64,000 nt of DNA from Microthyrium microscopicum. Taxonomy: Eukaryota. Numbering within the stretch: the first letter of the stretch is position 1; each line of letters opens with the position of its first letter. The notes under the pieces are model-generated. The model saw nothing but the letters and a program-made list of their open reading frames with translations, made no database searches and was not told where the DNA came from. The DNA is taken from positions 1,507,481-1,571,480 of the forward strand of contig MU004232.1 in assembly GCA_010405405.1 (NCBI GenBank). The letters are read 5' to 3'. Positions 9,375-58,687 of the stretch are shown in pieces. The position numbers were made by a program, and so were the translations under genes.

Positions 9375-11076
9375 ATGAAGAAGTTACAAACCTTAGCAGC
9401 GACCGTTGTCTTTTCTGCTGCGGCAGAGGCAATGGCAGCTATGATCTCAATCCCACAATATCTTCCTACAAAGTCATTTGCGACGACATTTTTGGGTGCC
9501 ATCTTTTTGACCATCACAGTATGGAGCTTTTATCAGATGTTCATTTATCCATCCTTTGTCAGTCCGTTACGACATCTCCCACATCCAAAGGTAAATTCCG
9601 AGTGTAACCGCAATGTTCTTAGCTAACACATTACAGGGCGGCAATCTGTTCTTGGGCCACGGTCTATCGCTCTTCAAACGACCCCCAGGAAACGATTTCT
9701 TGAAGTGGATGAATGAAATCCCAAACGACGGAGTACTCATGTTCAACGGCTTCGGCAATCAACCACGTATTGTGTTGACCAATCCACGAGCTCTCAGTGA
9801 AGTTCTCGTAACCAAAACCTACGACTTCAAGAAACCAAAGCCACTTCGAACCTTTCTACGACGTATACTTGGAGATGGTCTCATTATTGTTGAGGGAGAA
9901 GAACATAAGTTCCAGCGCAAGCATGTTATGCCAGTGTTTAGCTTCCGACACATCAAGGAGCTTTATCCCATGATATGGAAGAAGGCTGTCGCATTGACGC
10001 AGGGCATTGAAGCAGAAATGGCCGAAAAGATGGATCTGTCCATGGGCGAGAAGTCCAAACACAACGTTGTGGAAGTAAACCACTGGGCAAATAAAGTAAC
10101 AATGGACATCATCGGTGTAGCAGGACTGGGTCGAGAATTCAACGCATTGAAGAATTCGGATGATCCTCTGGTCCACAACTACGAAGAAATCCTCGAGCCA
10201 ACTACCGAAAAGCTTACCTTCTTTGCGATGCAAATCATCTTGCCTCAATTCATCGTCAACCGCTTACCTTGGAAGATCAACGAGAGAGTCCGCGTGATCA
10301 CCAGCAACCTCAACCGCATCTGTGGCGAGCTTGTCGCCGACAAACGTGCGCTTATTAAAGCCGATGCCGACGAGCATCTCGACATTCTCTCGGTCCTGAT
10401 CAAATCCAACAACTTCTCTGACAAGCAACTTGTCGATCAACTTCTGACTTTCCTCGCTGCCGGTCATGAAACGACTTCAAGCGCATTCACTTGGGTCACC
10501 TACCTCCTCTCCACCCACCCCGAGATCCAAACCCGCCTACGCGAAGAAATCCGCAAACACATCCCCACCAACCCAGGCCCAGACTTCGATCTGGCCACAG
10601 TACTCGAAGCCATGCCACTACTAAACGGTGTCTGCAACGAGACACTACGCCTCTACCCCACAGTCCCCATCACCATCCGAGATTGCTACACAGATACCAC
10701 TGTATGCGATCACTACATCCCACGTGGAACGCAAGTTCATCTTGTGCCCTGGGCAACCAACCGCCTACCAGAGTTCTGGGGATCCAATGCCGGCGACTTT
10801 GTACCAGATCGATGGATCGACAAAGAGACTGGCCGACCCAACAACACTGGCGGGTCAAGTAGTAACTACAACATCTTGACCTTCTTGCATGGGCCTCGGT
10901 CGTGTATTGGGGAGAAATTCGCAAAGGCAGAACTGCGTTGTTTGGTGGCGGCGATGGTTGGTGCTTATGAGATGGAGTATGCGGATCCGAGTGTTGAAGC
11001 TATACCGCATGGTGTGATTACGACGAAGCCAAGATGGGGTATGGAGTTGCGTTTGAAGTCATTACAGCAATGGTGA
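9375..11076 (+). CDS. Cytochrome P450 monooxygenase; exons 9375-9590, 9637-11076
   Basis: N-terminal TM anchor and PLRHLPHP; AGHETT, ETLR, PDRW, heme motif FLHGPRSCIG; intron GTAAAT..GCTAAC..TACAG. Confidence 0.95.
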
Positions 11077-11264
11077 GAAGCTACTCTGTAAATGTTTTGG
11101 GCTAAACCAGGGGTTGCGGTATGTCCTTCTACAGTAGATGGCTAGAATTGCAGCTTCGTTCGATGATTATGTCTCATGTTTGTTTATTTGTTTAAGACTA
11201 TTCCTGTATCGTTAGATAGGCTCCATGATATAGACACGACTTTTAAATGCATCACGTCAGCGTC

Positions 11265-12049
11265 CTAAAACTCCGTTCTCATCGCACCTTCCAGCCACGC
11301 AACACCAGCCATAACTCCATCCACAATCCTAACTGCCTTGCCTTCCTTCTCCCCCAACTCTTCGATCGCCGCTTCCCTCACCATCTCATTCATACCACTC
11401 ATACCTGCACAACCTAAACATATCGCGCCCACATCGCCCTTCTTAAGCACTCGTTTCGTCGCATCCATCATCTTCTTACGCACCTCTTCCGGCGGCGCAT
11501 CATGCAATTCAGTCGCATTCAACCCCGTAGTCTCCACCCCAGCAAATCTAGTCGACACAACCTTCACACCTAGAAACGCCTCGACCGCCTCATTGAGAAT
11601 ATCTTCCCAGACTTTGCCCGTGCTAACAATACCAAACTTCTGATGTGGTGCGATGATCTGTAGACTAGTACTGACGCTTGACTCGAAGATGCCAGTCACT
11701 GGTTTTCCGCTTGCTTGGATTGCAGGTTGAGCTTTCAGCCATGGGACGAGCGGGTGTTGGCTATAGCAGGCGGTGAGGAAACCATCGTATTTATCGAGAA
11801 GGGGGAGGAGAGCGGGACCGCAGTGTTTGGCGGATTCGGCGGCGTCGGTTTCGTCGTTGATGGATTTTGGGCCTGAGGGGGCGGTGAAGTAGTCATGTTG
11901 CGTCTGCAATAGATGATGAGTAATGCGCTGTGAAAGTAGTATCTTCATACTTCTGTAAATCCTAAAGCATCAACGAGTGGTTTGAGCGCATCAGTCATGG
12001 ACTTTGTTGAATTGGGGTTGATGACGAGAATACATCGTTTGGGAGTCAT
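11265..12049 (-). CDS. DCG1: Asp/Glu/hydantoin racemase family protein (Dcg1-like); exons 12049-11951, 11903-11265
   Basis: Exon 1 MTPKRCILVINPNSTKSMT; ACYSQHPLV and ICLGCAGM catalytic Cys motifs; intron GTATGA..TTGCAG. Confidence 0.85.
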
Positions 12050-12722
12050 GGTTGTGTATCTGACGGTGACTGAGATTTCTGGTTGTGTTTCCGGGAAAGT
12101 CATCTGCGATGCAAAGAGTTTGAAGATTTGGATTTGGAAAATGAAGTTGTAGTGAAGTTATAAGAACCGTGGTGCTTGATAAGGAAGTTATAGAAAAGTT
12201 CAAAGCGGAGAATACCGACACCGATTTCGGTATGACGCTGTAGCTTTTTTTTGCTCCATGTTCTTGAGAATAAACTACTTATGAAAACCGATTTTTACTG
12301 GCTGGGAAAGAAATTATACGCCTGCTTGTTCGAAAAGGCACCAAAATAAAGCAGTATGCTCGTGTTAACGTTATAGGTTCGGATTACGTTTATCTCTTTT
12401 TTTTTACTTCTTTCTGTCTATTGATTGCTCTTATACATTTAACATAATAAAGCCACATGGAGGGCAAGGTCGTAGTCAATAGTCAGGTACATTTGGTCGA
12501 AGTTACCCAATTTTCCTTGCTCCCCTAACCACATTCTGATATTGAGCGCCACGGCGCATACCGTAGGTTTCGGGAATGATATTTGAGAGTACTAAGATAA
12601 AATGGATTACAATACTTAAGTGGTTAGTTTTCAGGCTATAGATTTACGAGTTCGATAGCTTTGGTTCTTTAGGTATGATGGCAAAAGGGAAGTATAACAG
12701 TCACCACTGTCTCAAAGGAAGT

Positions 12723-12730
12723 AAAAAAAA
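12723..12730 (-). terminator. RNA polymerase III terminator (T8) downstream of tRNA-Val
   Basis: A8 run on + strand, 12 nt 3' of the tRNA discriminator on the minus strand. Confidence 0.75.
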
Positions 12731-12742
12731 GAGTTTTATCTG

Positions 12743-12871
12743 TACGAGAAGGGAGGATTGAACTCTAAAGCCGGTTGAGTCAGCATTTGCTCAGTTCTCT
12801 AATATACGAAGGTAACGTACCCCGACCTTCGCCGTGTAAAGGCGACATCATAACCACTAGACTATTCTCGC
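12743..12871 (-). tRNA. tRNA-Val(UAC) with 56-nt non-canonical intron in the T-stem; exons 12871-12821 and 12764-12743
   Basis: Spliced: GCGAGAA TA GTCT AGTGGTTA TGAT G TCGCC TT TAC AC GGCGA AGGTC GGG^AG TTCAATC CTCCC TTCTCGT A (73 nt); acceptor, anticodon and T stems pair fully; A and B boxes intact. Confidence 0.93.
12765..12820 (-). other. Spliceosomal-type (GT-AG) intron inside tRNA-Val gene
   Basis: GTACGTTACCTTCGTATATTAGAGAACTGAGCAAATGCTGACTCAACCGGCTTTAG: donor GTACGT, branch GCTGAC, acceptor TTTAG. Confidence 0.85.
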
Positions 12872-13627
12872 GCCATGATTGGCTGCTAGACAGCAGCTTT
12901 TTCGATCCAAACTTGTACCACTGAGGGCAAAAGATCAAACCAATATTCCGCGGCTTTTGTCAATATACTTGCTGTTACGCAAGCAGAAAATTTCGGTGTA
13001 CGACGCTACAACATGACCTGGCGATGCTACCGCACACCCATTTGCCTCTATTTTGTCTCGAAAGAAAATACAGAAAGGTACAGAGTTTAGATGTTTAATA
13101 CATGATCCAAAAACTTAACGGCATGAATGTTATTTTCGTTATTTGTCATCGAAATCTAAATGGTTAGGCAGTCTGTCTCGACGTTGACCGCCACCTTCAG
13201 TTGCAGTAATGCAGAAAACGATATGGTACCGAATAAATGTCTCAGTGTATATCTTGTCAGATCCATTGCTAAAAATTCCAATCTACTTCTTCCATATGGC
13301 CAAATTCTTTTGCTCTATAAATTCCAAAGGTGGTCATTAGTAGTAAAGTTGGCGCAAGGCAAGTACGACTAACAGGCAGCTGCAGGATAGCTAGTTTCAG
13401 CCTGATAGTCACCCAAATACCTAGTCCAATCCAGCCTACAAATTATCGATTGGTAATGCACGCCTAATATATTGTCTGGAAACAAACAGTCTATCAACAT
13501 ATGATGCGTATGAGCTATGTATTTCTGTCATCTCAATAATTTCATGATGTAAAACACATTTCTACTGACCAGCCATCAGAAGTATCTAGCCTTCTCTAAT
13601 GTCCGCACAACGCCGCTTGAAAGTAAT

Positions 13628-14093
13628 CTACAACTCATCCTTGCCCGGTGTAACCGTAACCATCTCAGTCTCAAAGACAAGCACCGAGTTGGCAGGGATT
13701 GGACCAACTGCACGCTCACCATATGCCCAGCTTGGCTGGATGGTAAGTGTACGCTTGTCACCGGGGCACATGTCTTCTAGACCCTTGTCCCAGCCTTTGA
13801 TAACTTGTCCACCGCCGAGTGCGAAGGAGAGTGGTTGACCGCGGTCATATGAGGAGTCGAACTTTGTGCCTACAAGGAATTGTGTTAGTATATCATGGGA
13901 GGTATTTGAGAGGGTGGGTGGCAAACGTACCGTCTGTGAGTGTGCCCTTGTAGTGGACGCCGATGGTATCGCCTGCCTTGGACTTGCGATCGCATTCGCC
14001 GGCGTGGGTAATCTTGATGTCGAGGGGCTCGTCGAGAGCGGATACAAATGGGATCGCAACGGCGGCGAGGACTGTGAGGATGGAGAAGCGCAT
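13628..14093 (-). CDS. FPR2: ER FKBP-type peptidyl-prolyl cis-trans isomerase; exons 14093-13931, 13869-13628
   Basis: Signal peptide; [10 protein letters not shown]^[42 protein letters not shown]-terminal KDEL. Confidence 0.95.
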
Positions 14094-14850
14094 ACTGAGA
14101 TGTTGTGGAGATTGAAATGGATGGTGGTTTTGTGATGGATGGAATCGACGAGCGGAGTTATCGTCGTAGAGGATATGTTCTTGATAAAGTGAGATTTGGA
14201 TGTTGTATGATATGTTGTAGTTTCAATAAATTGTACATGAAATATTGAAGACACCTTGACACATTCTCGATGTTTGACACGGGCCACTCAAGTCACGGGA
14301 AACGCACGTTTTAAATAGATTCAACTATAAACAACGCAAGGGCCACCACTAGCGAGGGGTCGGTCACGATGTGATAGGTTGAATGGAGATGCGGCTGGTT
14401 CACGCTTGCTGTGTTTGGCTGGGGCGTTCCTGCCTTTGCTGCAGTCCTTGAGTAGCCTGGTGTTTCCTTCCCTTCTCCAGAATTGCTCCTGCCTCCCCTG
14501 CACAGTCTCCCCGTCAACACCTTCCTCTCCAAATTTCAAATCCTTGGATTTGCTCCCTGTCGTTCTTGCATCTATTCTTTCGTTACTCAGCCCTTTCCAT
14601 CTCTCCAGGTCCAGTTCCAAACATATAACCTCTACCAGGCGTCAACTCAATCACTTCTTCAAGAACATCATACACACTCGAACCGTTTATTCTTCCGTCC
14701 GGCCCCATCATTAACCAGCCTTCCACTCTCCACACCACCACCCCTTTCGTTGCCTCATTCCACCACGCCTTGTCCGGCTCCACGCTCGTCCAAACAGCTT
14801 GTCGGCTGTTCTGATCTTACAAGCAAGACTGTCACCGCCTCGTTGAAACC

Positions 14851-15965
14851 ATGGGGTTCGGCGACTTTCACGACATCTGCGCGCATGCTGCTCTGCCGCT
14901 ATGCAATCTCATCGGACCGCCCAGTCAGATTTCTGGTCATATTGGAATCCAGGCAACCTGCTTCTCGCGATCCGTTGTATTGGCAAATACCCTCATCTTC
15001 CAAGGAGCCACAGACTTTATACATATACTGGCTTTGATAATGGCTTCCATCATGATCATTCACGTGCGATCAAAGTTTACCGCTGTTGGTATGTCGCAGG
15101 ACGCGAATCCATTCCTTTGACTTTGTCCCGCTAACATAATCATAGGCCGAAAGGAAATCACCTTCTTCTTCTACCTATACATGACCCTGACCTGCTTCTC
15201 CCTCGTTCTCGATGCCGGTGTTATTCCTTCCGGTAATGGCGCCTATCCATATTTTGTCGCCGCTCAAAATGGTCTTGCATCGGCGCTCTGCACGAGTCTG
15301 TTGATCAATGGATTTGTCGGCTTCCAATTATATGAGGACGGAACTACACTCTCAGTCTGGCTATTGCGATTCTTTACATCAGTTATGTTCGTCATCTGTG
15401 GCGCCATCTCCCTCTTGACTTTCAAGGGATGGGCCGGCCTAGGACCAGAGAACACAGTCGGAATGTTCGTAGTACTCTACATCTTCAACGGCATCTTTCT
15501 CGCCATCTACGTGGTCATGCAAGTTCTTCTCGTCCTCAATACATTGGAAGACCGCTGGCCAATGGGTGATATTTTGTTTGGTATCTTTTTCTTGATCATT
15601 GGTCAAGTCATCCTCTATGTTTTCAGCGGCAAAATTTGCGAGGCGGCTTCCCATTATCTTGATGGCCTTTTCTTTGCAACCATCTGCAACCTCTTGGCAG
15701 TTATGATGGTCTACAAGGTAAGAATTACCCGGTTCAATATATCATTCATGTCACTAACCTACTATAGTACTGGGATTCCATTACCAAGGAAGATCTGGAA
15801 TTCAGCGTCGGCGTAAAACCAAACAATTGGGAAGTCAAGGAACTGATGCCCGAGGAGGAACGCCGAACTACCTACTACCACAATGACAATGGATCCGAGT
15901 ACTCCAACAGCTTGTACCAACAACCGACTCAAAAACGGAACTCAGGTCATGGCTGGCATTACTAA
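14851..15965 (+). CDS. CHS7: Chitin synthase export chaperone; exons 14851-15088, 15146-15717, 15768-15965
   Basis: [29 protein letters not shown]^[25 protein letters not shown]^[14 protein letters not shown]. Confidence 0.95.
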
Positions 15966-16428
15966 GAGTGTTAAGAAAATGACGAATATTTGCATCAGCA
16001 TGCGTGGCGTTTTGGTTTGGTTTAATTTATAATTGATTTATTCATTTTTGGAGCGACTCCCAAGCGCAAGAGTGGACGTATTGGTTTGAGATTGGGGATT
16101 TTGTATTCTTGATACCTCTGGATTCAGAAGGTTTGGTTGAGAGTGAGCGACACTCTCGAGGATAGTATTATGGACAATCATTACGCAGCGGATACATCAA
16201 TGGTATTACTAGTAGGCTAATGATTAGCATTTCTGGAAAAGGCCAACAGATTTCGGCCAAGGAGAATCCCACCTGATCAAGATTCTCCTGTACATAGTTG
16301 CAATAGAACTAATATCAATTCTCAAAGCAAGATTTGGTACTCATCATCTCGTTATTGTCATTATCTAGCTATCTACAAAAGCAAATGGAAATTCTTTCGC
16401 TCAAAATGCAACGCTACGAAGCTATATA

Positions 16429-31426: not shown

Positions 31427-33804
31427 ATGGCGAAGATGTTTACGAGGGGGAATAGCGAAAAGTTGCATCAGGCAGATGGAAGATGGGGAATCAAATTCGC
31501 ATGTCGATTGGGTATGAGTCTTGTCAGTGTGGCTGCAATTGCTCTTGCTGTCGTTACTCTCATTACGGGCAACTCAAGTTTTGCTCCCAAACCATTTCGA
31601 CAAGCTGGAGATGTCGTGATATACCTCCCATGTGTAAGCGAAAAGTTCCTTGATGATTAATCAGATTGTGCTGACAAGAAGTTCAGGATATTGTTTCCAT
31701 CCTGTGGAATATCACCTGCATCGTCTACTTCTTTTCGAAAAGAAAGCCACTGCTTCCAACTGCCACAGTAGTACTGCATTTCTGTCTGGCCATCATTTTC
31801 GCCATTACAGGAGTTTATGTAACTCTCGTAACTTGGACCGGATACAAGGGCCTCAGCGGCGATATATACAACGTCGACATGCTTGGAGAGCATCAAGTAA
31901 CATCGATTGAAGGCAATGCTGTAACTGTCAACGCTGGAAATGTCCACGATTGTCCGGCATTTCCAAGCTGCACTTCTCAACGGATGTGGCTCCAACAAGC
32001 TCAGCAGCGTGGACTTACTGCAGTCATTGGATCCATTTTGTTTGATCTGAGCTTGTATGTTCATACTGTGCCTATCATGAACTCAATGCTAACATCTTAT
32101 AGCTTCTTCCATTGTGCACTCTTCTTCCTAGGTCTCAACGATGCGGTATTTGGCGGTCGTGATCTTCTAAAGCGACGGCCAAAGCGAAAAGGCAAATCAT
32201 CACCAACCATGGAGGATTACAAACATGCAATGCGTGCCTCCGTGAGGGAAACGTCGCAATACGCTGATCCAGTTCCCATGTCAGCATTTAGAAAGGTCTA
32301 TGCTGACCTTCCTATTGGGCCCAGTCGACTAAGTGGAGCGGGCATCAAACCATATAGCAACCATAACTCTGGAGTGGCTTCACCTCGTCACATCGCCATT
32401 GACATGGATCCATACAGCTCTCAGCAACGTCTTTACAACGGACAGGATTTGTCACCCACACTTGACCGACCGGCTCGATCTTTACATCGCAGAAGTTCAA
32501 CACCACCCAGGAAATACGAGTCTCGTTCTAGAGAGAGACGCAGCCCTTCTCTAGGCTATCACGAGTCCGAATCCAGGAACCGCCGTAGCCACTCTCCTGG
32601 TTATTACAAATCTCACTCAAGGTCCCGCCGCAGCCGTTCTAGAGGCCACTATGAATCCGATTCCAAGAACCGTCGCAGTCGCTCTCGAAAGAGCCATGGA
32701 TCCCGCTCGCCAGCCCATCGCAGTCGCTCTCGGAGGAGCCATGTCTCTCGCTCACCAGCCCGTCGCAGTCGATCCCCCAGAAGACATGGCTCTCGCTCAC
32801 CATCACGGCATAGCCAGTCCCGCAAGAAGCGTGAGTCTTACACGTCAACTCACCGCAGCCATTCCCGGAAGCATGTAGCATCTCGTTCACCGTCTCGTCA
32901 CAGTCATTCTCACAAACACCACGACTCTCGCACGTCGAATCGGCGAAGTCGGTCTCCAGGTCATTATGAAAGTCGTAGCTCGAATCGACGCAATCACTCT
33001 CCAGGCTACTATGAAACCCGCCCCTCCCATCGAGCTAGTCATTCAAGATATTCCGACTCGCACAAAGCCGATCGACGCGGTCGCTCACCCAGACACGACC
33101 ACCGTCAAAGCAACCGAAGCAGCAGATCACCATCCAGACACAGCAAAAAGCGAATCAGCCGATCACCAGTCCCCCACTACGACTACTACGACGAGGAAGC
33201 AGAGTTAGAAAACGACATGCCGCCGCTACCACTCGAAGCCCAGTTCATGCCGAGCCCACAAGACTTTTCCTCCGACTCCGAGTCTGAAGAGAGCGAAGCA
33301 GAGGAAGAGACGGAAGTAGAAGAGGAGCCCAAGCAAGCGAACGAGAAAAGACCCCGTATGGCACACCGACCACGCTCCTACGACCGCATTTCCTACCTAC
33401 GGAACGCGCCATCCGCAGCCAACTACAAGGCAAACGGCACACCGGGCACAGTCATGACGCATGGGTTCGCTATGCCACCACGACACCATCGGTCACGTTC
33501 CCTGACGAGTATGCGATCTGTTCCTCCTGTCCCACCAATGCCGACTTACATGACGCGCGAGGAACTTGCCCTTTCGCAATCACAACAGGCCAAAGCAAGA
33601 GCGGCTCGTCCGCAGAATCGCCGGCATACTCTTAATGACAAATCAGCTAGCCAACACCAGAAAGTCTCAACGTACGGAGCACATCAGCATTACGTACCAT
33701 CGCCGGGAGTTGGATCGCCTACCTCGTCTACCAAGGGAGACCTTCCACGAAAGAAGAAGGCGCGAAGTGGAGTTGTGTCGAATAAGAGTAGCAGGAGAGC
33801 ATAA
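31427..33804 (+). CDS. Membrane protein (about 4 N-terminal TM helices) with long Arg/Ser/His-rich repeat tail
   Basis: Hydrophobic N-terminal exons (WGIKFACRLGMSLVSVAAIALAVV), intron near 31634-31686; ORF 31879-33804 with RSRS/RSP repeats and acidic tract; exon structure approximate. Confidence 0.6.
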
Positions 33805-44012: not shown

Positions 44013-44456
44013 TTTGAGTGTGGTGGTGAGAAGGAGGATGATTTGGTGTTTGAGGAGTTTGGGTGGTCATGGATGTTGGGATTGAGCTACGTAGGTGTGG
44101 CTGCTGGCTCGCGTGCCCCAATATGCTCTACTAGAGTAGCTCTAGGTTCACTGCTGGTACTCTCTGGATATATTTCTACGATCACTGCTCTCGACTTTAT
44201 TGGCGAAATAAATTGTACTCAATCAGACAGTAAATGAGCCTCGGGAGTGATAGAATGGGAGCAACTGCTTGCAGGGGGTGGCACAGTCACCTATGACGTT
44301 GAATTGCTGGTTCCGATGCCGGAATCGAAACAACGACTACTCCAAGTCGTGAACTTGATCACTTCTTTCCCTACGTCCATTGAATCATACAAGGCTGTCA
44401 TAACACAAGATAAAATTGGGTATCAAACAAATCTAAAGGTTTCTCCCAACAACCGC

Positions 44457-57230: not shown

Positions 57231-58629
57231 CGTCGTTGATTTTGCTTTCCTTGGGAGGCATCTTGTGGTCTTGTAGATTGGTGGATGTGCGGTAAGTGGT
57301 GAGAATTCAAGTCTGCCAGCTTGAGTTAGATATAGAGCCAATGATATAGCCAGAATTTGCACCAATGCTGTGATTATAGTGCTGGACGTATGATCCTCGT
57401 ACATACCTTGGGTCAGTGGAGAACCAAGAAAGAACTCTGACTTCGTGGTGAGGTGGAATTGGCTGAGTTGACTGAAGAGGACAAGAAGTGGAGGAGAGAG
57501 TTCAATCGAAGGGTTTTATGCACGAGAGATGTTTGCTGAGGGCAATATCAGTGAACTTTCGGCGATCGGTGAATCATAGAATCCGATGGAACGAATGCTC
57601 TCAATTGAAGAAATAGGAAAGAGACAATGATAGTGGTAGGGATGTTCAAACCTTATGTTGAGGAAATTCCCGAATATCGAAAGAATGAATGATACTAGCG
57701 TATTCATAGCTGTCAAATGACGCCAACAAGTACTCGAAATCGCAAGTGATACCTCTGCTTATTCACTCACTCTCGAAATTCAACATTGATGACTGTGGGT
57801 AATTGAAACAAGACTGTCATACGCTGAGATCGACGGCGAAATGGCTGATATCTCGGTGGAGAGACAAGTCTGATTTGATGATATGGATGTTATGTGTTAT
57901 GCATCGGGCTTTTCTCCATCTGCCACAACTAAGCAGATGAATAGTTCAACAGAAGCGGTCTGTCCCGCCTAGTTAATACCAAACGGGACCACAGTGTGAA
58001 CCTTTTCTTTTGTCAGTCGACCATTTGGGTCTCTTAACCCCCTCTAAAAGGAATTGGGCTGTACTGCAGAGTCCCGAAACGACCAAGGCTGATTGATAGA
58101 GCGGTGGCAGGCACGGCACAGTTCGCTAAGAGGAAAAGGGACATACCGTACCTATCAAGCTTGTCTGTAGGCAGAAGATATCAGAATCGTACGTAGAGTC
58201 GAACAACCATTTACCGACTCATCCATCCCAATCTTCTGGAAGCCTCTCATGTACCACACATAATTCTCCGAACAAAAATCTACCAGACTTTCCAAAACAG
58301 GACAATGTACCTGACGATCAAAATCTTCAAGGCCCCCAAACACAACAGTTCCCACGATACCGGGAACCATTCAAAAAATGTGACCCAAGAATCGAACGAC
58401 CGGCCAAACCTTCACGGAGCTGAGACCTGCGCTGCACACTTCCCAAGCCCATCACCAACTCCTCGGCGCAGAAAACTCAACCTCGACTGCTCACAATTCA
58501 AACAACCCACAGGCGTGGGGCCAATCATCTCCCATCACCAGAGTGTCGCCGTGAAAAAAGCAAAATGCGCGACCGGCCAAGCGTGTGCGTTTTCTGGGAG
58601 AACCACATGGAGAGAACTCCTCGTGCGCG

Positions 58630-58687
58630 CCACGTTCAAGTCCACGTTCAGTTTCACCACGTTTTAAGTCCACGTTTGTCACGTTTT
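58630..58687. repeat. Five-fold (C)CACGTT motif array
   Basis: CCACGTTCAAGT CCACGTTCAGTTTCA CCACGTTTTAAGT CCACGTTTGT CACGTTTT. Confidence 0.6.

Follow-up and report, generated by a model that had tools for sequence, protein, structure and literature searches.

Can a tRNA gene be host to an intron of the mRNA type, and can the spliceosome thereby take part in the making of a tRNA? The question is raised by a locus on contig MU004232.1 of Microthyrium microscopicum, which we analysed within a stretch of 64,000 nucleotides (hereafter the window) and which had been annotated initially as a split tRNA-Val(UAC) gene.

Spliceosomal and tRNA introns are treated in reviews as unrelated classes with separate machineries, and a 2025 paper describes the three nuclear intron types as completely unrelated (PMC12530127). 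Reviews of tRNA processing and tRNA introns describe endonuclease-based removal only and place the eukaryotic non-canonical tRNA introns in Cyanidioschyzon merolae and in nucleomorphs (PMC10275265, PMC4090602). Outside mRNA genes, the sole U6 gene of S. pombe, which is transcribed by Pol III, contains an intron excised by the spliceosome, and many U6 genes of fungi hold up to four mRNA-type introns with canonical signals (PMC5855946, in which the U6 intron work of Tani and Ohshima 1989, 1991 and of Canzler et al. 2016 is cited). The other non-mRNA hosts listed there are the U1, U2, U5 and rRNA genes, with the U1, U2 and U5 snRNA introns of Rhodotorula hasegawae and the rDNA introns of ascomycetes (Bhattacharya et al. 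2000) as cases, and tRNA is not named there (PMC5855946); spliceosomal introns of the fungal U3 snoRNA are also reported (PMC5832005). The initial annotation had taken spliceosomal maturation of a tRNA to be a processing route not known to have been described. Searches of full texts outside subscription journals and supplements agree with this, since they turned up no account of a tRNA gene that holds a spliceosomal intron; the sole phrase match (10.64898/2026.07.09.736142) reads 'non-spliceosomal tRNA introns'.

A tRNA-Val(UAC) gene interrupted in its T-stem

The gene lies on the minus strand, the strand being absent from the initial annotation, and its features are collected in Table 1. When the two exons were joined in silico, ARAGORN called a tRNA-Val(tac) of 73 nt, with GGGAG/TTCAATC/CTCCC as its T-arm and GCGAGAA/TTCTCGT as its acceptor; the cut point can be slid by one G, and a cut at 50/51 gives an identical product. 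The anatomy of the locus and the joined cloverleaf are thus in agreement with the assignment of a tRNA-Val(UAC) gene that is split in its T-stem by a GT-AG intron. The product had also been described as flawless, which is slightly generous: the cloverleaf called by ARAGORN is clean, but it contains a G1.U72 wobble and a U13.U22 mismatch, both of which are common to the closest intact relatives among the matches listed (see below). On the consensus sequences that we assume for the two internal promoter boxes, we take TAGTCTAGTGG and AGTTCAATCCT to be A-box-like and B-box-like, respectively, and the distance between them is longer by 56 nt owing to the intron. Runs of eight or more T number 4 per 128,000 strand-bases of the window, about 0.001 being expected per 30-nt stretch, and the position of the T8 run behind the tRNA gene is not chance.

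Table 1. Features of the split tRNA-Val(UAC) locus and joints of the X1 contigs, in positions of the window.
Feature	Position	Strand	Description
tRNA-Val(UAC) gene	12871-12743	minus	interrupted between tRNA nt 51 and 52 by 56 nt
Exon 1 (tRNA nt 1-51)	12871-12821	minus	51 nt, 3' end GGTCGGG; acceptor 5' strand, D-arm, anticodon arm, variable loop, T-stem nt 1-3
A-box-like TAGTCTAGTGG	12864-12854	minus	exon 1, D-arm
Anticodon TAC	12838-12836	minus	within exon 1
Intron, spliceosomal type	12820-12765	minus	56 nt, GTACGT...TTTAG
Donor GTACGT	12820-12815	minus
Branch CTGAC	12783-12779	minus	branch A at 12780, 15 nt before the intron end
Acceptor TAG	12767-12765	minus	first AG past the branch
Exon 2 (tRNA nt 52-73)	12764-12743	minus	22 nt, AGTTCAATCCTCCCTTCTCGTA; last 2 nt of T-stem 5' strand, T-loop TTCAATC, T-stem 3' strand, acceptor 3' strand, discriminator A73
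B-box-like AGTTCAATCCT	12764-12754	minus	wholly 3' of the intron
Exon-exon junction		minus	after removal of 56 nt, GGTCGGG followed directly by AGTTCAATCC
T8 run	12730-12723	minus	12 nt past the discriminator; place and form of a Pol III terminator
Spliced RNA	12849-12821 joined to 12764-12397	minus	X1 contig, 397 nt
A9 genomic run	12405-12397	minus	contig stops at its last A; preceded by TGTATAA and AAGAAGT
X1 joints in neighbouring genes	11903/11951, 13868/13930	minus	GT-AG
X1 joints in neighbouring genes	15087/15145, 15715/15766	plus	GT-AG

As had been foreseen, standard tRNA finders miss the uncut gene. ARAGORN reported no gene in the window, and still none when introns were allowed at default stringency, and Rfam had no match in the window at the gathering score. 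In E-value mode the Rfam tRNA model reached 26.5 bits at the uncut locus against a cut-off of 29, aligning exon 1 correctly and then misreading the start of the insert as the T-arm. Since tRNA finders discard such genes, fungal tRNA gene counts may be systematically short.

Other calls in the window were of low quality. Two weak Rfam matches near the locus, CRISPR-DR43 (E 8.2) and snoR113 (E 7.9), are at chance level, and with a relaxed threshold ARAGORN miscalled the locus as a tRNA-Leu(gag) with a 44-nt intron, a result that we do not trust. Relaxed ARAGORN settings with long introns allowed also gave low-grade calls at 32433-32641 (Arg-gcg, 113-nt intron), 33042-33138 (Thr-cgt), 44016-44165 (Leu-gag, 56-nt intron) and 58559-58655 (Arg-tct), which are absent at default settings and from Rfam and are probably false.

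Splice signals and position of the intron

The donor of the intron is identical to the donor of an RNA-confirmed intron in the upstream FPR2-like gene, the branch sequence CTGAC fits the fungal branch consensus CTRAY, and a further AG that lies two bases downstream of the acceptor is unused in RNA, its use being one that would wreck the T-stem. The length of 56 nt is within the range of 47-61 nt of the RNA-confirmed neighbouring introns (n = 4; 47, 50, 57 and 61 nt), so that donor and size class are indeed those of nearby mRNA introns, as initially stated. The signals were scored as a set consisting of GTRNGT, CTRAY 8-30 nt from the end and YAG, and the full set is present in 27 of 3,325,010 window segments, or about 8 × 10−6 (45-70 nt, both strands, real introns included). 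A frequency of about 8 per million segments indicates that the insert is more than chance.

The intron folds weakly (−8.6 kcal/mol) and contains no run of more than three T, so that Pol III could read through it. An introner-like or transposon-derived intron would be expected to come with many near-identical copies and a target-site duplication; within the 64-kb window no second copy of the intron was found, and only 1 nt is repeated at its ends. An origin of the intron from duplicated flanking sequence was considered and rejected, the alignment scores being 14-17 against a shuffle mean of about 15.

The position of the intron, at 51/52, differs from that of the introns removed by the tRNA endonuclease, which is normally 37/38. 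T-arm introns that are cut by endonuclease do exist: eukaryotic non-canonical cases are reviewed in PMC4090602, and archaeal-type T-loop inserts in tRNA-Val(UAC) are present in four of the metagenome loci that are described below (L006, L101, L112 and L117). The insert might on these grounds be regarded as a non-canonical tRNA intron that is cut by the tRNA endonuclease and sealed by a ligase, with its GT-AG ends being a coincidence, a reading to which we attach hardly any probability. No bulge-helix-bulge could be found in the intron, the best of 16 registers having 7 of 12 pairs and being equalled by 62% of 2000 intron shuffles, a result that supports the initial interpretation of a spliceosomal-type intron. 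The set of donor, branch and acceptor would, moreover, have to arise by chance, at the frequency given above. The fungal Sen enzyme measures from the folded tRNA body, and as the intron splits the T-arm, we infer that this body cannot form prior to splicing.

Exact excision of the intron in RNA

Contigs of X1 (dated 2014), the one public run found to contain the locus, from one study, were aligned to positions 11000-16000. That X1 is RNA rests on the guess of the alignment tool and on the joints in the neighbourhood as we read them: across three neighbouring genes the contigs leave out four GT-AG introns (Table 1), and most intergenic DNA is uncovered, from which two features we conclude that X1 is a transcriptome.

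One X1 contig of 397 nt, with a mean word depth of 38.3, joins position 12764 directly to position 12821. Of its letters, 1-368 match 12397-12764 and the other 29 match 12821-12849, and as 368 and 29 add up to 397, there are no letters between the two sides of the joint; the shorter side, that of exon 1, has 29 letters and the bridging threshold of the alignment tool is 31. The joint skips 56 nt, has the ends CT..AC on the plus strand (GT..AG on the minus strand) and is ambiguous by 1 nt, and the orientation of its GT..AG indicates that the RNA originates from the minus strand. The contig starts at tRNA nucleotide 23, with nucleotides 1-22 outside it, and is unbroken at the boundary of exon 2, and among the X1 contigs at the locus none carries the intron. 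Gaps in the X1 cover extend over 12037-12396, 12850-13128 and the intron itself, and such gaps prove nothing. The predicted 56-nt intron is removed exactly in RNA of the locus, as observed in one contig of one run, and the excision precisely at GT/AG that had been proposed from the DNA, together with its RNA junction, is therefore seen.

Could the joint have come about in the absence of splicing? The DNA of the X1 strain might lack the 56 nt, as an insertion polymorphism, or the reverse transcriptase might have skipped the stretch. We consider this very improbable. The 397-nt contig has no mismatch, and the four aligned X1 contigs are at least 99% alike to the window, with neither an indel nor a differing letter listed over some 3.9 kb that take in untranslated parts, which indicates that the X1 strain is the same or nearly identical. 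The skipped stretch is also bounded by GT..AG and has a branch site, like the four neighbouring introns, and the 1-nt microhomology at the joint and the weak fold of the intron argue against template switching. Removal of the 56-nt intron by the spliceosome is, in our judgement, very likely.

We favour, as the rather probable explanation of the locus, a nuclear tRNA-Val(UAC) gene that has acquired a U2-type GT-AG intron at 51/52, which is cut by the spliceosome to give a spliced RNA that folds into a working tRNA. In such a pathway U1 would bind GUACGU and U2 would bind CUGAC, with the first AG after the branch being used, and the T-arm and elbow would fold only after splicing, whereupon trimming of the ends by RNase P and RNase Z would yield a working tRNA. 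The precursor could be made by Pol III, as for the intron-bearing fungal U6 genes, or by Pol II reading through the gene; in the latter variant the gene would have moved into a Pol II transcript, from which RNase P and RNase Z would release the tRNA. We see about even chances that a working tRNA results from the split gene. A strictly obligatory role of the spliceosome in making a decoding tRNA, in which the T-arm folds only after lariat removal of the intron from either a Pol III precursor or a Pol II host transcript, is a more tentative proposal, its chances being slightly short of even.

Nature of the spliced RNA

The spliced RNA passes the 3' end of the tRNA (12743), a 12-nt trailer and the T8 run and ends at 12397, 346 nt past the tRNA 3' end. 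As T8 is a normal Pol III stop and the spliced RNA passes it, the molecule seen is not a normal pre-tRNA. The A9 at which the contig stops is either a poly(A) site or an internal oligo(dT) priming site, and the TGTATAA before it is presumably a poly(A) signal, judged by the fungal signal motifs that we assume. Pol III read-through and a Pol II transcript are about equally good accounts of the spliced RNA, which looks like a polyadenylated Pol II-type RNA at least as much as like Pol III read-through. In the case of Pol III, read-through would be rare, and given heavy tRNA transcription a read-through of 1% could reach the observed depth; in the case of Pol II, transcription would begin close to the tRNA gene or at it, with polyadenylation near 12400. 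The uncovered stretch upstream of 12849 is at most a weak hint that read-through does not come from the FPR2-like gene. Neither a pre-tRNA of normal length nor a mature tRNA is to be expected in a run such as X1, and we give Pol III a roughly one-in-two share as the maker of the RNA seen. The initial claim of a Pol III tRNA precursor that is matured by the spliceosome therefore stands in part: the excision at GT/AG in RNA and the spliceosomal-type signals agree with it, whereas the RNA seen runs past T8, and a Pol III origin and a mature tRNA remain proposals.

The same transcript lends itself to a serious rival of the favoured explanation, namely that the tRNA gene is dead or dying. A spliceosomal intron, or a spliceable DNA fragment, would have landed in the gene recently, and only a Pol II by-product would be spliced, with no working tRNA being made. 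A Pol II non-coding RNA would have its start at the tRNA gene's open chromatin or within it, in a weakly transcribed region, and be polyadenylated near 12397, Pol III transcripts would keep the insert and be discarded, and other genes would supply the tRNA-Val(UAC). Although we hold this to be unlikely, it accounts for a spliced RNA that starts at tRNA nucleotide 23, ignores T8 and runs 346 nt on to the A9 behind TGTATAA. Nor does the cloverleaf decide against it, since any precise insertion, once removed, restores the tRNA by construction, and a clean cloverleaf alone is thus no sign of selection. According to PMC4090602, where insertions interrupt the D- or T-arm of a eukaryotic tRNA gene, the gene is mostly one among many synonymous copies and is regarded as a pseudogene. 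On the other hand, the exons are intact at every position, as are the A- and B-box-like sequences and the T8 run, even if intact exons may reflect merely a recent insertion, and the intron has a full set of signals typical of the host, such as about 1 in 100,000 random inserts would have. Pol III genes with spliced mRNA-type introns also exist in fungi (PMC5855946), which speaks for the favoured explanation over a dead gene.

The RNA contig, which consists of a tRNA part and 346 nt ending in A9, could also be seen as a tRNA-derived SINE or another repeat with a tRNA head, an unrelated body and an A-rich tail. This is most improbable, as the exons, the intron and the 346-nt tail each have no other copy in the 64-kb window, the T8 between head and body would stop the Pol III transcript of the SINE itself, and the head forms a tRNA that is complete and well paired.

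Immediately upstream of the tRNA 5' end, at 12878-12897 on the minus strand, there is a 6-bp inverted repeat without mismatches around a 4-nt loop (GCTGCT GTCT AGCAGC), and it leads into a CCAAT motif that lies 7-11 nt ahead of tRNA nucleotide 1.

Intact relatives and interrupted loci in metagenome contigs

Metagenome contigs were scanned with an anticodon-arm pattern, which gave at least 121 loci. The closest intact genes among the matches listed are L085 and L047, with 61 of 73 positions identical to the joined gene, and L034, with 60 of 73; these three agree with the joined gene throughout the D-arm and the anticodon arm as well as in G1.U72 and A73. The stem differences are all pair-preserving, with four double changes and one single change relative to L085 and L047 and five double changes relative to L034, and include the pair 52:62 beside the intron as well as acceptor pairs that bridge both exons; three unpaired differences from the relatives are confined to T-loop nucleotides 57, 59 and 60. 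The pair-preserving changes in the stems, together with the intact A- and B-box-like sequences, indicate that the tRNA encoded by the exons is a genuine member of a tRNA-Val(UAC) lineage of eukaryotes. Lineage membership of the exons does not date the insertion.

The T-arm is uninterrupted in 112 of the 122 matches listed, as judged by a loose regular expression that overcounts by at least three interrupted loci of the L101 type. None of the other 10 matches listed has GT..AG at 51/52, two of them (L033 and L035) being cut by contig ends. A pattern consisting of the Val-UAC T-stem followed by GTNNGT had no match in the metagenome contigs, where fungi are scarce, and the absence of an interrupted relative among contigs of this composition counts as a further point for a dead gene.

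Several of the matches are interrupted in other ways. Loci L006, L101, L112 and L117 are tRNA-Val(UAC) genes with an acceptor of the GGGCCC type, which is archaeal in style, and behind TTCGAAC or TTCAAAA their T-loop is split by inserts of about 85-115 nt, which are followed by the 3' strand of the T-stem and the acceptor and lack GT..AG at 51/52; these inserts are probably archaeal non-canonical T-loop introns. Locus L054 (251-353) has an intact tRNA-Val(UAC) that is followed, within about 30 nt, by a second copy of the anticodon arm with non-tRNA sequence on its 5' side and an interrupted T-arm, which may have arisen by partial duplication or may represent a second gene with multiple interruptions. 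In L009 and L045, the anticodon arm of tRNA-Val(UAC) and an interrupted T-arm are preceded by non-tRNA sequence (AAGAGGTTCCACTGATAAT), and a simple search found no matching acceptor for either locus; an additional D-arm intron may account for them, or else the gene may be split or permuted.

Relation to known introns

The kind of intron is known, and what is new is the tRNA gene as its host. The closest comparison that we draw is with the fungal U6 genes, which like the present locus are small genes of structured non-coding RNA with an internal or Pol III-type promoter logic, and which hold short introns with canonical donor, branch and acceptor, the U6 introns being otherwise unconserved. In S. 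pombe U6, exon and intron sizes are about 50 nt each, of the same order as those found here. Unlike U6, the tRNA host has a dedicated intron system of its own, and the spliced RNA seen reads through the terminator, its Pol III origin being putative. We know of no contact of tRNA with the spliceosomal active site, and the origin by reverse splicing at the catalytic centre that has been proposed for U6 introns is for this reason not readily applicable. The cases of U1, U2 and U5 snRNA, rDNA and U3 are likewise GT-AG introns within conserved, structured RNA genes of fungi, which shows that the spliceosome can act outside mRNAs, and the locus differs from them in that its host is a tRNA.

Should the spliced RNA be a Pol II product, there is also some likeness to mascRNA, a tRNA-like small RNA that is cut from the Pol II transcript MALAT1 by RNase P and RNase Z, since the tRNA could be released by the same two enzymes. 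Unlike the product considered here, mascRNA does not serve as a decoding tRNA, and the tRNA-like part of its host is free of introns.

The introns of C. merolae, of cryptophyte and chlorarachniophyte nucleomorphs and of archaea are similar in that they lie outside 37/38, T-arm included, and are missed by standard finders (PMC4090602, PMC3728597). According to the same sources, these introns have a bulge-helix-bulge or are 3-24 nt long and are cut by endonuclease, whereas the M. microscopicum intron is 56 nt long, has no bulge-helix-bulge and carries the full spliceosomal signals.

Removal at GT/AG in a tRNA gene adds tRNA to the non-mRNA intron hosts U1, U2, U5, U6, U3 and rRNA. If the spliceosome is obligatory, this would be the first tRNA with a supply dependent on mRNA-type splicing, and the three nuclear intron classes would no longer be separate in the way that textbooks hold. 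The locus is a natural test of whether Pol III transcripts beyond U6 can be spliced, and it bears on intron gain, as tRNA is abundant yet outside the core of the spliceosome. Even if only a Pol II by-product is spliced, the locus would still be a dated example of an intron gain that kills a tRNA gene.

Neighbouring genes

The genes around the locus encode a P450, an Asp/Glu-racemase-like protein, an FPR2-type FKBP whose end is KDEL-like, and a Chs7-like protein, and this gene content fits a filamentous ascomycete with short introns. The FPR2-like FKBP gene (13129-14212, minus strand) encodes a signal peptide and the KDEL-like end, has its stop at about 13631 and contains one 61-nt intron with the donor GTACGT. 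Its untranslated 3' part is about 500 nt long and ends 258 nt upstream of the tRNA gene, and among the aligned X1 contigs the depth is highest for this gene, at 1574.
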